The translations under genes were made by a program, and so were the position numbers. DNA of 64,000 nt from an uncultured Gammaproteobacteria bacterium. GTDB lineage: Bacteria; Patescibacteriota; Patescibacteriia; Magasanikbacterales; GWA2-37-8. Positions 19,594-23,479 of the stretch are shown here, in pieces (the first letter of the stretch is position 1; each line of letters opens with the position of its first letter). The stretch spans positions 1,015,723 through 1,079,722 of the forward strand of contig CAZQUL010000001.1 in assembly GCA_964596525.1 (NCBI GenBank). The letters run 5' to 3'. The notes below the pieces were generated by a model, which saw only the letters and a program-made list of their open reading frames with translations, did not search any database and was not told the origin of the DNA.

Positions 19594-20364
19594 ATGAACG
19601 GAACTCTCTTTATTGTCGCTACCCCTATTGGCAACCTACAAGACATTACGCTCCGCGCTCTTGAAACGCTTAAAACCGTGGACGTTATCCTTTGTGAAGA
19701 TACGCGCGTTACCGCCAAACTTCTCGGTCATTTTAGTATTCAAAAGCCGCTTGTGAGCTATCATCACCACAGCGATGCTCGCAAGATTAATGAAATTAAA
19801 CAGCTCCTCGCGGACGGTAAAAACATTGCGCTCGTGACCGATGCTGGAACGCCGGGCATCAGTGATCCGGGGAATGAATTAATCAGTGTCATTGCGAAAA
19901 GCGACACAAGAGCGACGAAGCAATCCCCAGAATTCACCGTAGGCTCTACGGACAAAGTTGGTTCTGATACCAAGGGGATTGCTTCGCCTCGTACCTCGGC
20001 TCGCAATAACAGTGTGATAACACCCATCCCCGGCCCCTCCGCTGCCATTGCCGCACTCTCAGTTTCCGGTTTTTCGACGGACAAATTTATCTTCCTCGGT
20101 TTTCCACCGCACAAAAATAAACGCAAACAGTTTTTTGAGAATGTTGCGAATTCGGATTATACGACGGTATACTTCGAATCCGGGCATCGGATCATCAAAT
20201 GCTTGGGTGAACTCAAGGCACTTATCCCGGAGCGTCGTATCGTAGTCTGCCGTGAGCTTACCAAATTGCACGAGACGATCTATCGCGGCTTGGTCGAAGA
20301 CGTAGTGGAAGAAATGAAAGAAGAGCGGGGAGAGTTTGTGGTCGTAGTTGAGGGAAAAAGGTAA
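19594..20364 (+). CDS. rsmI: 16S rRNA (cytidine1402-2'-O)-methyltransferase RsmI, carrying an in-frame inserted peptide segment of about 39 aa
   Basis: Start moved to MNGTLFIVATPIGNLQDITLRALETL (tetrapyrrole-methylase-fold RsmI N-terminus); ALVTDAGTPGISDPG; C-terminal VCRELTKLHE; insertion VIAKSDTRATKQSPEFTVGSTDKVGSDTKGIASPRTSARNNSV encoded by 19888-20005. Confidence 0.8.
   Translation: MNGTLFIVATPIGNLQDITLRALETLKTVDVILCEDTRVTAKLLGHFSIQKPLVSYHHHSDARKINEIKQLLADGKNIALVTDAGTPGISDPGNELISVIAKSDTRATKQSPEFTVGSTDKVGSDTKGIASPRTSARNNSVITPIPGPSAAIAALSVSGFSTDKFIFLGFPPHKNKRKQFFENVANSDYTTVYFESGHRIIKCLGELKALIPERRIVVCRELTKLHETIYRGLVEDVVEEMKEERGEFVVVVEGKR
19888..20005 (+). repeat. copy 1 of a roughly 118-nt intragenic in-frame repeat element (shared with ligA)
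   Basis: Near-identical ends to 22015-22133: GTCATTGCGAAAAGCGAC ... GACAAAGTTGGTTCTGA ... AAGGGATTGCTTCGCCTCGTACCT(C/T)GGCTCGCA; the centre diverges and carries an indel; the termini are partly self-complementary (GCGAAAAGC / GCTTCGC). Confidence 0.7.
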
Positions 20365-20401
20365 TTTGGCTATACTACGGAGCGTAGTATTTATTATTTG
20401 T

Positions 20402-20620
20402 ATGCGTACCTTCGATTTTACCTCAATCGTGTGGAAAGAAGGCACCTATTACGTTTCACAGTGCTTGAACGTGGAAGTTTCAAGTTTCGGTAAAACCAAG
20501 AAAGAAGCGCTCAAGAATTTGAACGAAGCACTTGCGTTGTATTTTGAAGATGCGCCGCGTAAGCGCATGCAAAAGACCGAACGTCCCGAAGTGATTGCTT
20601 TGAAACGGCCGTATGCCTAA
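20402..20620 (+). CDS. HicB-like / UPF0150-family small protein (possible orphan antitoxin)
   Basis: 72-aa product MRTFDFTSIVWKEGTYYVSQCLNVEVSSFGKTKKEALKNLNEALALYFED matches the HicB/UPF0150 pattern (...y.a.cpel.g..sqG.T.eEAl.nl.EAl.lyle); no HicA partner seen. Confidence 0.4.
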   Translation: MRTFDFTSIVWKEGTYYVSQCLNVEVSSFGKTKKEALKNLNEALALYFEDAPRKRMQKTERPEVIALKRPYA

Positions 20621-20835
20621 ACCTATTCCACTTAAACGGCACCAGCCTGGCTGAAAATCCACGGCTTTGTTTTTCTAAGCCAGAAAGGCAGTTATACTAA
20701 TATCGGACGATAACGAAACCGATACAGGCGGTTATAGTTCTATTGCATGGAAAAGAAATACCTTTTGGAATCTTCCGATCGATCGTTAAGCAGCCTGGTT
20801 TAGGTGCTGAAGCCGAGGAGCTTCTTTAAAAAGAA

Positions 20836-20860
20836 AAAAGCCCGGGTGGGCTTGGTGGGG
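20836..20860 (-). terminator. rho-independent terminator (minus strand) downstream of the 20868-21257 gene
   Basis: On the minus strand: GCCCACCCGGGC hairpin followed by TTTTTTCTTTTT. Confidence 0.5.
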
Positions 20861-20867
20861 AATGTGT

Positions 20868-21257
20868 TCAGATCGTGTTCTCGGGCAAGAAGAGTACGGC
20901 CGGGATGATCGTGCTTTCGATAAACTCTCGCGGGATGTTCTTTATGTCGAGGGTGATCAAAGAACTTCGATCGACCTGGACTTCTACCGTGAAGCCACCA
21001 AAAGCCTTCTCCAAATTTTCGATAGTACGGCTTTTGATTATGAAAGCCCTCCTGTTTCCAAACGTTACTTTCATCCCGTAATGCGTATCAGCCGCGCGGT
21101 TCAGGGGAGTGATGATGATAGTGCTGTCTTCTTGATAGAAGGGAAGTCCTTCTCGCTCCAGCACCTGTTCGAGGTATTTGCGAAGCAAGAATTCGATGGC
21201 GGACTTCTCGAAACCCCGGCGCTTCGCTGAGCTCTCGCTATTTTCCATGACGCACAC
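20868..21257 (-). CDS. hypothetical protein
   Basis: 129-aa ORF with its own minus-strand terminator immediately downstream; preferred over the overlapping plus-strand ORF 20862-21230. Confidence 0.4.
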
Positions 21258-21280
21258 TCCTTGCTTCTCTGGAAGCGTTT

Positions 21281-23479
21281 ATGGTTTATCAAAAGACCTT
21301 ATTTATGTCAATCTCTCAATCGCTGCTCGACCGCGTTAACCGTCTGCGTGCCCAAATCGACGATTTACGCTACCGCTACCATGTCCTCAATGATCCCGAA
21401 GTAACCGATGCGATGTACGATCCGCTCATGGACGAGCTCAAAAAAATTGAGGCCGAATATCCGGAGCTCATCACACCCGAATCACCCACGCAGCGCGTCG
21501 CTGGTAAACCGGCCGAAGGATTCGAGAAAGTGACGCACCAGGTACCGCAATGGTCGTTTAATGACGCCTTCGACGATAATGACATAAAGGATTGGGAAGA
21601 GCGCATTCTCAAAATGCTGGAAAAAGATTTAGGCGAGCGGCCGACCGACGTGTCATACGTGTGCGAGCTCAAGATAGACGGCTTGCACATGGTTTTGACG
21701 TACGAAAACGGCGCGCTCGTAACTGCCGCGACCCGCGGCGATGGTCGGGTAGGGGAGAACGTTACGCAAAATATCCGCACCATTCAGTCTGTTCCGCTCC
21801 GCCTTAAAGAAAATGTTAACCTCGTTGCCGAAGGCGAAGTGTGGCTCGCGCGCGACATGCTCGAAAAGATTAATGTCGAGCGAAAAGCGAACGATGAACC
21901 GCTGTTTGCCAATCCGCGCAACGCCGCGGCCGGAACGATCCGCCAGCTTGATCCAAGCATAGTGGCCAAAAGAAAACTGGCGTTGACAGCATATGATATT
22001 TCTTTGTTTTCCAATGTCATTGCGAAAAGCGACGCAGGAGCGATGCAGCAGTCCCCCAAAATTACCTCGAACTCTGACGACAAAGTTGGTTCTGAACGCG
22101 AAGGGATTGCTTCGCCTCGTACCTTGGCTCGCAGTGACATGAGCGGATTAGATATTTCAACTCAAGAAAAAGAACTCGTGCTTTTAAAAAGCCTCGGTTT
22201 TAAAACTGATGCGCATTGGAAAGTGTGCCGGAATCTTGATGACATCTTTGCGTTTTATCGCGATTGGGAGAAAAAGAAAGATTCCCAGCCGTTCTGGATC
22301 GACGGTGTGGTCATTAAAGTAAACCAGAAACGTTATCAAGAGCTTCTTGGCTACACGGGCAAAGCGCCGCGATGGGCGATTGCGTTCAAATTTCCGGCTG
22401 AACAGGGGACGACGAAGATTGTTGATGTGTATTGGCAGGTAGGAAGGACGGGTGCTCTTACCCCGGTTGCACTCATGGAACCCGTCAAGCTTGCTGGTAC
22501 CACGGTAACGCATGCGACGCTCCATAATTTCGATGAAATTGAGCGTCTGGGCGTCAAAGTCGGTGATACTGTTGTAGTTGAAAAAGCTGGCGATATCATC
22601 CCCAAAGTTGTGCGTGTTCATGAAAAGATGCGCACGGGCAGCGAGAAAAAAATCCAACAGCCCAAAAAATGTCCGATCTGCTCCGGACCGGTCGGCAACT
22701 ACGGCAGTTCGTCTCAAGATGATGATAAGTCGGTAGCATTATACTGCTTGAACAAAAATTGTTTTGCTAAAGAAAAAGAACGCATCGTGCATTTTGTCGG
22801 TAAACATGCCTTTGATATCGACGGCTGCGGTGAAAAGATTGTTGAGCAGCTCATTAATGAGGGGCTCATCAAAGACGCGGCCGATTTGTTTACGCTCAAA
22901 GTAGGGGATCTCTTGCCGCTCGAGCGCTTTGCCGAAAAATCAGCCGAGAATCTCGTTACCGCAATTTCTTCCGCACGTAACACCACCTTCGCCCGTTTCA
23001 TCATCGCGCTGAGTATTCCCCACGTCGGTGAAGAAACCGCCGAAGACTTAGCTAAGCATTTCGGCACGCTCGAAAAACTGCAATCCGCCACGATCGACGA
23101 GCTCTATGAGGTCTATGGTATTGGTGAAAAAGTCGCGCGGTCGCTTCAAGCGTATTTTTCCGATCCGGAGCATCAAAAATTCATCACCAAACTCTTAAAG
23201 AACGGCGTTATCGTCAAAGCCGAAACTCGAGAAAAAACATCCGCGGCCGGGCCTTTGACCGGGCTTACGTTTGTTCTTACCGGCACGCTCGCGTCACTCT
23301 CGCGCGATGAAGCCAAAGAAAAAATAAAAGCTCTTGGCGGTGATGTGTCTGAGTCTGTGAGTAAAAAAACTTCGTACGTGGTAGTAGGGGAAAATCCGGG
23401 TTCGAAACGGGATAAGGCGGAAAGTCTCGGGGTGAAAATTTTGACCGAAGAAGAATTCCTTGTCTTGATTGCTTTATAA
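21281..23479 (+). CDS. ligA: NAD-dependent DNA ligase LigA, carrying an in-frame inserted peptide segment of about 39 aa
   Basis: Adenylation motif [10 protein letters not shown] (KxDG), OB fold, Zn-finger Cys (CPICSGP...C), HhH repeats, C-terminal BRCT ([12 protein letters not shown]); insertion [45 protein letters not shown] encoded by 22015-22133. Confidence 0.9.
22015..22133 (+). repeat. copy 2 of the roughly 118-nt intragenic in-frame repeat element (shared with rsmI)
   Basis: See the copy-1 feature; same reading frame and orientation in both host genes. Confidence 0.7.

Follow-up and report, generated by a model that had tools for sequence, protein, structure and literature searches.

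Two unrelated housekeeping genes in a 64-kb stretch of a Patescibacteria genome (64,000 nucleotides of contig CAZQUL010000001.1, assembly GCA_964596525.1; hereafter the window, in whose coordinates positions are given unless another locus is named) carry the same palindromic element in frame. The genes are rsmI, which encodes the 16S rRNA C1402 2'-O-methyltransferase, and ligA, which encodes the NAD-dependent DNA ligase. The element is an inverted dimer of two units resembling repetitive extragenic palindromic (REP) sequences, and we think it likely that it is a selfish, non-autonomous element that is tolerated although translated and whose copies drift neutrally. An earlier note on this DNA had proposed such a selfish palindrome in the two genes, and the proposal is supported by the 80% identity of the copies, by their palindromy and by the lineage specificity of the inserts. 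The features on which the argument turns are the following (nt, nucleotides; aa, amino acids).

rsmI, 19546-20364, + strand: 16S rRNA C1402 2'-O-methyltransferase, 272 aa; the insert forms residues 115-155
Copy 1, 19888-20010, + strand: in frame in rsmI, 123 nt in all; an inverted dimer with a left REP-like unit at 19888-19926, a right one at 19976-20010 and a spacer between them (19927-19975)
ligA, 21281-23479, + strand: NAD-dependent DNA ligase, 732 aa; the insert forms residues 246-286, in the adenylation domain
Copy 2, 22016-22138, + strand: 123-nt dimer, in frame in ligA, 41-aa peptide; left unit 22016-22054 (inner arm mutated), spacer 22055-22103, right unit 22104-22138
Copy 3, 58815-58954, no strand assigned: 140-nt family member, intergenic

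The element in rsmI and ligA

Pairwise alignment of 19884-20011 with 22012-22139 gives 80% identity without gaps, so the indel that had been placed between the copies is not needed; the repeat itself is real, but it measures 123 nt and 41 codons rather than about 118 nt and 39 aa. The right-hand 50 nt are almost the same in the two copies. Two shared words, the 18-mer GTCATTGCGAAAAGCGAC at the 5' end and the 21-mer GGGATTGCTTCGCCTCGTACC close to the 3' end, have exactly two occurrences apiece in the window, against 0.05 and 0.00 expected from shuffled sequences. The copies lie in direct orientation, 2128 bp apart, and the base 5' of each is a T, which gives a TGTC tag. As the earlier note had stated, they share orientation and frame: both are on the plus strand and both begin at codon position 1 (GTC ATT GCG, V-I-A), adding 41 codons to their hosts, and the peptide of copy 1 is VIAKSDTRATKQSPEFTVGSTDKVGSDTKGIASPRTSARNN. 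In whichever orientation it is read, frame 0 of the genic copies is free of stops and gives V-I-A...R-N-D, whereas frame +2 of both has internal stops and always terminates in a stop within AATGAC or AATAAC. The common frame of the two copies is therefore the expected outcome of a survival filter. An assembly artefact is unlikely, because RsmI and LigA proteins identical to those of the window, inserts included, are recorded in both NCBI and Logan, on a 1.34-Mb contig and on a 10.4-kb Logan contig. Judged by the names of homologues, the source organism is a member of the Patescibacteria near Magasanikbacteria.

Each genic copy is a long imperfect palindrome. The self-complementarity that had been noticed at the termini is genuine, although the pairing of GCGAAAAGC with GCTTCGC is not: the outer stem is formed by GTCATTGCGA and TCGCAATAAC (TCGCAGTGAC in ligA) and the inner stem by GAAGCAATCCCC and GGGGATTGCTTC. 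Copy 1 folds into a long hairpin both as RNA (-51.5 kcal/mol, z -6.0) and as DNA (z -4.75). The hairpin of copy 2 is weakened (RNA -45.4 kcal/mol, z -3.15; DNA z -0.9), the low DNA score being due to mutation of the left inner arm, and this is consistent with decay after insertion.

A scan of the window with the terminal decamers located copy 3, which lies between the convergent open reading frames (ORFs) 58374-58799 (+) and msrB, 58977-59360 (-), the latter neighbour being SelR/MsrB. Its right-hand unit (58924-58954) is intact and its left unit degenerate; the preceding base is C, giving a CGTC tag, and the DNA hairpin has a z score of -4.1. Stops are present in all three plus-strand frames and in two of the three minus-strand frames; the remaining minus frame is open throughout, and a spurious 155-aa ORF (58796-59263, minus strand) crosses the copy. 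All three copies in the window are inverted dimers that can be folded as one long hairpin. Elsewhere, at 18,728-18,748, a 3.6-kb non-coding region contains an isolated GGGATTGCTTCC that differs from the inner arm of the element by a single mismatch; it may be the remnant of a further copy or a chance match.

Position of the inserts in the host proteins

In RsmI, the insert splits the Pfam TP_methylase match into two stretches, and residues 16-118 and 157-271 align with residues 26-128 and 132-252 of the Escherichia coli enzyme (PDB). The AlphaFold2 model places residues 121-151, with a predicted local distance difference test score (pLDDT) <50, between the helix 108-118 and the strand 157-161; the modelled fold agrees with RsmI structures and is intact on both sides of the insert. 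LigA has the complete NAD-ligase domain set, with the Pfam DNA_ligase_aden match broken at profile position 166 of 253 and the alignments to LigA structures in the PDB interrupted at the insert. In its model, residues 245-288 have pLDDT <50 and lie between the strand 234-242 and the helix 295-304, again with the fold intact. Structural modelling had been proposed as a check on the insertion sites, and by placing both inserts in low-confidence loops beside intact folds the models suggest that the two 41-aa segments are probably disordered surface loops. The expectation that both sites would fall between domains holds for RsmI, where the site is the linker joining the two subdomains of the methyltransferase fold, but not for LigA, where the loop is inside the adenylation (nucleotidyltransferase) domain.

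At the sequence level, there is no sign of selection on the insert peptide. The 25 differences between copies 1 and 2 fall 11, 7 and 7 on the three codon positions, which is no codon-position bias, and the copies are 63% identical in amino acids vs 80% in nucleotides. The inserts are presumably translated, to judge from their open frames and from the essential nature of the host genes, and presumably neutral.

Lineage specificity of the inserts

The alignment of orthologues, another check that had been suggested, finds the inserts to be lineage-specific, with edges that coincide with those of the repeat. RsmI orthologues without the insert have a loop of 9-12 aa at the site. The LigA loop is 6 aa long in 67 of the 93 classifiable close orthologues, and a large insert is found only in the window and its nearest relative. 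Most RsmI and LigA orthologues do not have the segment, which speaks against an ancestral origin.

Both inserts are absent from L185, a syntenic locus with the same rsmI-ORF-ligA arrangement. In L002 (GCA_052035445.1), the nearest syntenic relative, the rsmI insert is absent and ligA holds a member of another subfamily, GTCATTCCGACC...CGAAATGAC (peptide VIPTGARNERSGGI...VRND), two codons upstream of the ligA site used in the window. The ligA site of L005 is empty, with equal loop length (SLFSPENFSRDISTQ vs SLFSN, 41 aa and MSGLDISTQ in the window). Two other loci, L003 and L187, share with the window its left unit and the place of that unit in RsmI; their RsmI proteins are only 67-68% identical. 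The right half is gone in L187, and the L003 copy is 66-68% identical to either window copy, compared with 80% between the window copies. From the comparison of syntenic loci we conclude that the inserts are derived, are bounded by the repeat and are open to gain, loss and decay.

Architecture and distribution of the family

One genome per species was scanned with the pattern GGGATTGCTTCG-N(6-20)-CTCGCARTRAC, which returned at least 120 stretches. The matches listed come from Chloroflexota, Alpha-, Beta-, Gamma- and Deltaproteobacteria, Ignavibacteriota, Nitrospirota, Patescibacteria and, among archaea, one Bathyarchaeia metagenome-assembled genome, and they yielded 118 complete elements, 60-156 nt long and in most cases 75-126 nt. 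The unit that emerges consists of a YGTC tag, the stem-loop ATTGC-GA-(variable core)-GAA-GCAAT and a tail beginning with CC, so that a 5-bp stem is followed by a GA/GAA internal loop; the variable core at the apex is frequently itself a small hairpin. The stem ATTGC...GCAAT is present in all parsed units (172, mostly 26-38 nt, range 20-64; 31-39 nt in the window). GTC is invariant in the 118 elements, the base before it (-1) being T in 64 and C in 45, and the base after the closing GAC (+1) is A in 65 and G in 41. The tails read CCC in 108 of 160, CTC in 44 and CCA in four, a count that is biased, since the pattern demanded GGG/CCC on one side. No target-site duplication flanks 101 of the 118 elements, and the flanks of the window copies (AGT, AT and C) are inconsistent.

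Most of the copies in other phyla are in short stop-free stretches, that is, in intergenic sequence or at gene ends. Further in-frame cases are found in Patescibacteria, in a leucyl-tRNA synthetase (L075) and in a KsgA-like protein (L021). The end motif is also present, unannotated, on alphaproteobacterial megaplasmids and matches 52 viral stretches in IMG/VR. One of these (L140, IMGVR_UViG_3300035498_002011) is a bona fide phage fragment in which the REP-like 3' motif is found six times within 10.4 kb; it encodes a portal protein and the large subunit of a terminase, with in addition a weak major-capsid match (E 7.8e-4, 19.5 bits; Pfam cut-off 24.1). Conserved transposable elements of the miniature inverted-repeat type (MITEs) that are common to prokaryotes and their viruses have been described (PMC11602168), and phage carriage is a plausible route of spread across phyla.

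The 123-nt subfamily of the window is rare in the collections scanned. In metagenome scans, the strict pattern gave no match and the relaxed pattern gave seven, nearly all of them chance matches, with one half-element. A word-index search with the insert peptide found no candidates for other host proteins, and an exhaustive profile search gave two weak matches to long proteins, each in 5-6 matched stretches, the 41-aa and partly low-complexity query being too weak for this purpose.

Variation at the RsmI and LigA loops

The RsmI loop, which follows the motif DPGxxL[IV], is at least 16 aa long in 53 of 111 close orthologues (from the set P0001-P0120), with 16-55 extra residues. Thirty of these 53 have the hallmarks V-I...(R/G)-N-D, of which 16 are of the ATTGC type, six of the VIL type, six of the VIP/ATTCC type and two of other types. 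The peptides represent at least three palindromic families (VIA..KQS..PRND, VILSEA..GRND and VIPA.AGI..DSRFRGND), and the inserts start at two codon offsets. Peptide types of the published REP family CGTC-1 (VIPAKAGI, CHSRESGNP and DSRFRGND, exact or near) are at the loop in P0027, P0041 and P0076, and peptides matching such types are among those of the VIP type. Besides these, we note other repeat-like peptides in the loop (IVASPLFKEGIEGRS and VSPSYQEGVGGV) and an extra insert, PVKSPVGRPPDAEFNRV, at a second site in the RsmI of P0117. The LigA loop after YD[IV]S (orthologues P0121-P0240) has extensions of 8-23 aa in about two dozen orthologues, with peptides such as ITYHVSRN, EELRMKNEELR, SNEQLTINN and GHRAEDIGH, which are of a different, AT-rich repeat flavour.

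At the empty rsmI site of L002, a perfect 8-nt palindrome, GTCATGAC, which amounts to two element ends joined, occupies positions 2212-2219 of that locus, exactly at the insertion point. It occurs twice in the 14.7-kb locus, against 0.14 occurrences expected, and may mark either the target of insertion or the trace of an excision. With about half of the close orthologues occupied, by at least three REP families, the RsmI loop offers a tractable natural system in which to test for target choice by REPs and to study their loss.

Origin and retention of the inserts

The explanation that we favour, and think likely, starts from a low-copy subfamily of REP dimers. Its copies would have landed in the linker loop of rsmI, a loop in the adenylation domain of ligA and one or more intergenic spacers. 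The dimer would have been copied without target duplication by an enzyme acting in trans, most plausibly through single-strand, hairpin-based transposition. Three filters would keep a genic copy: a length that is a multiple of three, a stop-free frame and a loop that tolerates insertion. The ribosome would then read through, so that each enzyme acquires 41 disordered aa that loop out from its surface and for which no function is evident; the retained copies would drift neutrally while their hairpins decay.

Several observations weigh against this explanation. Of the 63 candidate ORFs of the window, 46 were scanned, and none of these is a transposase or other mobilising gene (Y1 and RAYT, the REP-associated tyrosine transposase, included); nor does any gene family turn up repeatedly next to the element in the 120 loci of the matches listed. 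The 2305 ORFs of those 120 loci cluster into generic families (ABC ATPases, response regulators, histidine kinases, short-chain dehydrogenases/reductases and glycosyltransferases). An autonomous parent was not found either; element ends often form pairs at a spacing of 300-4000 nt, but simply because every small element is itself a palindrome. The known copies in the source genome number three, in 64 kb, and because the 123-nt subfamily is rare in the collections scanned, recent mobility is no more than a possibility. Translation and tolerance are both deduced from two facts, that the frames are open and that the host genes are essential. The RsmI site is filled in many orthologues, for which selection alone may be insufficient. 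Finally, the published CGTC-tagged REP families 1-4, to which the element is compared below, have a continuous 8-9-bp stem and a 4-5-nt loop and are known from five phyla (Di Nocera, De Gregorio, Rocco 2013, PMC3733652), whereas the unit described here has a 5-bp stem followed by a GA/GAA internal loop (2x3) and, at its apex, a hairpin that varies.

The crowding at the RsmI loop is one argument for targeted insertion, or homing, in which the element or its enzyme recognises particular sequences or structures and the hot spot reflects target specificity. Extension of one loop in 53 of 111 orthologues, 30 of them with the hallmarks of at least three REP families at two codon offsets, is what homing would give, and so is a different subfamily placed two codons away in the ligA loop of the nearest relative. 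The palindrome exactly at the empty rsmI site of L002 and the strong flank bias (Y at -1, R at +1) point the same way. However, a small enzyme has few places where 25-45 extra residues are tolerated, and apparent hot spots can thus arise by selection alone; the other empty sites (rsmI of L185, ligA of L005 and L185) have no element-like motif, the Y/R bias may be the element's own tag, and GTCATGAC is a single case. On balance, we regard homing as rather unlikely. A broader version, in which several REP families (ATTGC-, ATTCC- and ATTCTGAG-type, with ends GTCATT...AATGAC) enter and leave particular loops of housekeeping proteins in Patescibacteria in a site-directed manner, with phages perhaps ferrying them between phyla, we think unlikely. 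Were it true, it would be a major undescribed source of the lineage-specific insertions that make those proteins unusual, and GTCATGAC would be the excision footprint or the target at the empty RsmI site.

Could one genic copy have been made from the other? Ectopic gene conversion or template switching between rsmI and ligA, followed by concerted evolution, would account for the closer likeness of the window copies to each other (80%) than to the L003 copy at the same RsmI position (66-68%), for their direct orientation 2128 bp apart and for the near identity of their right-hand 50 nt. Conversion, however, could start only from sequence in ligA that was already homologous to the element, and nothing of the kind is present at the closest empty site. 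There is also a third, diverged copy at a distance of 37 kb, phages and hundreds of unrelated genomes have dispersed members of the family, and the right end is conserved throughout the family and not just in this pair. Gene conversion could add to the similarity of copies 1 and 2, but it cannot account for the origin of the ligA copy, and as the whole explanation we consider it distinctly improbable. It is very improbable, in our view, that the element is an exapted module, whether a messenger RNA hairpin acting on stability or translation or an interaction peptide of RsmI and LigA. The rsmI hairpin is very stable (z -6), the copy at the same position is kept in L003 and L187 in RsmI proteins only 67-68% identical, and many REPs have been viewed as RNA elements (PMC3733652). 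These points are countered by the even spread of substitutions over codon positions, the decaying ligA hairpin, the closest syntenic relatives, which manage without inserts, the predicted disorder of the inserts and the half-element that is all that is left in L187. We give almost no credence to the remaining possibilities, namely an ancestral loop, convergence, excision in the manner of an intron or intein, or an assembly artefact. Both host loops are variable in length among Patescibacteria. Nevertheless, convergence, which the earlier note had envisaged over a few codons, cannot yield 80% nucleotide identity in unrelated genes and an additional intergenic copy, and an ancestral loop is at odds with the absence of the segment from most orthologues. 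We rejected an intron or intein: no Rfam intron or other RNA family matches up to E=10, save a spurious microRNA, RsmI and LigA both lack a Hint domain, and 41 aa is too short for an intein. The same proteins on two contigs, in NCBI and Logan, speak against an artefact.

If the selfish REP dimer that we favour is indeed the origin of these segments, there are practical consequences. Such inserts inflate and fragment the domain matches of their host proteins, they can mislead alignment and phylogeny, and they give rise to seemingly lineage-specific 'insertions' that are in fact junk and not adaptations.

Neighbouring features of the window

The two copies are direct repeats, and the earlier note had remarked that recombination between them could delete the stretch from a hicB-like gene through the 5' half of ligA. 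Since essential ligA would lose its 5' half, the deletion is a purely theoretical liability. We also rejected it as a function of the repeats: identity between them is unbroken for at most 22 nt, and the resulting protein would be without the LigA N-terminus, including the adenylation lysine. The hicB-like assignment itself could not be confirmed, the ORF at 20,348-20,860 having a sub-threshold match to DUF7387 and no NCBIfam match. By eye, the 240 nt that follow this ORF resemble a hicA-type tail (...KEIPFGIFRSIVKQPGL), which may be degraded.

Just upstream of rsmI, some 3.6 kb (15,880-19,540) have no convincing ORF and are dense in short hairpins. This region has no Rfam match at the gathering threshold or at E<=1. 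A CTTCTCGAAAGRG-like module is found there about 19 times on the plus strand; in the window as a whole it has 62 matches, against 36 +/- 6 expected, and these are concentrated in this region, which may be a very large structured RNA or an array of repeat modules. At the corresponding position, L185 and L002 have an MFS transporter gene and a small gene. The 5' end of a 603-aa ORF (14,064-15,875, minus strand) abuts the region; it has no Pfam match and a weak match to the NCBIfam 'IS110 family RNA-guided transposase' (E 8e-7, 28 bits; cut-off 140). Further away, at 3,093-8,747 (plus strand), an 1884-aa alpha-2-macroglobulin (A2M)-like protein has a Hint/intein-like segment at about residues 1107-1237, just before the A2M domain, with matches to PT-HINT, Vint, Hom_end_hint and Intein_splicing.

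Comparison with known systems

The comparison with classical MITEs, such as Correia and ERIC/RU, holds in part. These are also short and non-coding, with terminal inverted repeats and occasional in-frame intragenic copies, and the earlier description of the insertion as MITE-like was right in so far as an element is inserted in frame. It is, however, a REP dimer and not a classical MITE: target-site duplications are absent in 101 of 118 copies, and no parent insertion sequence with matching ends was found. Integron attC sites were considered and rejected, as the ends do not fit the consensus RYYYAAC/GTTRRRY. Searches of the literature by sequence string (GTCATTGCGA, TCGCAATGAC, CFASLAMT and similar) returned unrelated primer matches only, and no relevant paper was found on palindromic elements or MITEs in Patescibacteria or the Candidate Phyla Radiation.

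REPINs, mobilised by RAYTs (Bertels and Rainey 2011, PMC3116915), resemble the element in having two inverted REP units and a spacer that form a hairpin, in being non-autonomous and in making no target duplication. The window copies differ in their tag, YGTC and not GTAG, and in having no RAYT among the scanned ORFs. REPINs are moreover typically vertical, lineage-specific and overwhelmingly extragenic, whereas the end motif of the element described here crosses phyla.

CGTC-tagged REPs have a CGTC or TGTC tag (CCTC is also accepted), a stem starting with AT and a short C-rich tail with the consensus CCA; they occur mostly as inverted dimers and have no dedicated transposase (PMC3733652). Family CGTC-1 comprises Neisseria dRS3 and Rickettsia palindromic element (RPE)-6, and CGTC-4 is RPE-4. 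In-frame dimers have been reported in PolA, DnaE2, UvrA/B/C, aminoacyl-tRNA synthetases, RsmE and KsgA, with peptides such as VIPAKAGI...IPAFAGMT, SFPRKRES...DSRFRGND and VIAGLDPAIH...ARVKPAHD (PMC3733652 and its supplement). The window copies are tagged TGTC, TGTC and CGTC, have an AT-starting stem and a tail that is apparently C-rich, and are inverted dimers that fold as one stem-loop, with no target duplication and no linked transposase. In both cases, copies are often in frame in housekeeping genes, those for replication, repair and rRNA methyltransferases included, and dimers in frame 0 read V-I-...-(N/H)-D. By these features, the element belongs to the CGTC-tagged REP superfamily or is a close variant of it. 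As its stem and loop depart from the published dimensions, it is best called a distinct family or a variant of the superfamily; Patescibacteria are also outside the five published phyla.

The resemblance to Rickettsia palindromic elements that the earlier note had pointed out is upheld as one of architecture, in that the TGTC/CGTC tag, the AT-starting stem and the inverted dimer are those of the superfamily that includes RPE-4 and RPE-6. The peptides are another matter: VIAKSD...GIASPRT.ARN(N/D) of the window has only the terminal V-I and N-D in common with VIPAKAGI, DSRFRGND and VIPWLDHGI. RPE-1, as it is presented in PMC10969869 after Ogata et al. (2000, Science 290:347), is likewise a palindrome of about 100-150 nt that is found in frame in unrelated essential genes and adds a peptide where the protein fold was judged able to take it. 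It belongs to another lineage, and the element described here is clearly a dimer of short REP units with an end motif found across many phyla and in phages. RPE and REP dimers in housekeeping genes were already known; what is new is the Patescibacteria host lineage, the unit family and the hot-spot pattern of RsmI. We suggest that translated selfish palindromes of the Rickettsia style extend to the Patescibacteria, and hence to the Candidate Phyla Radiation.

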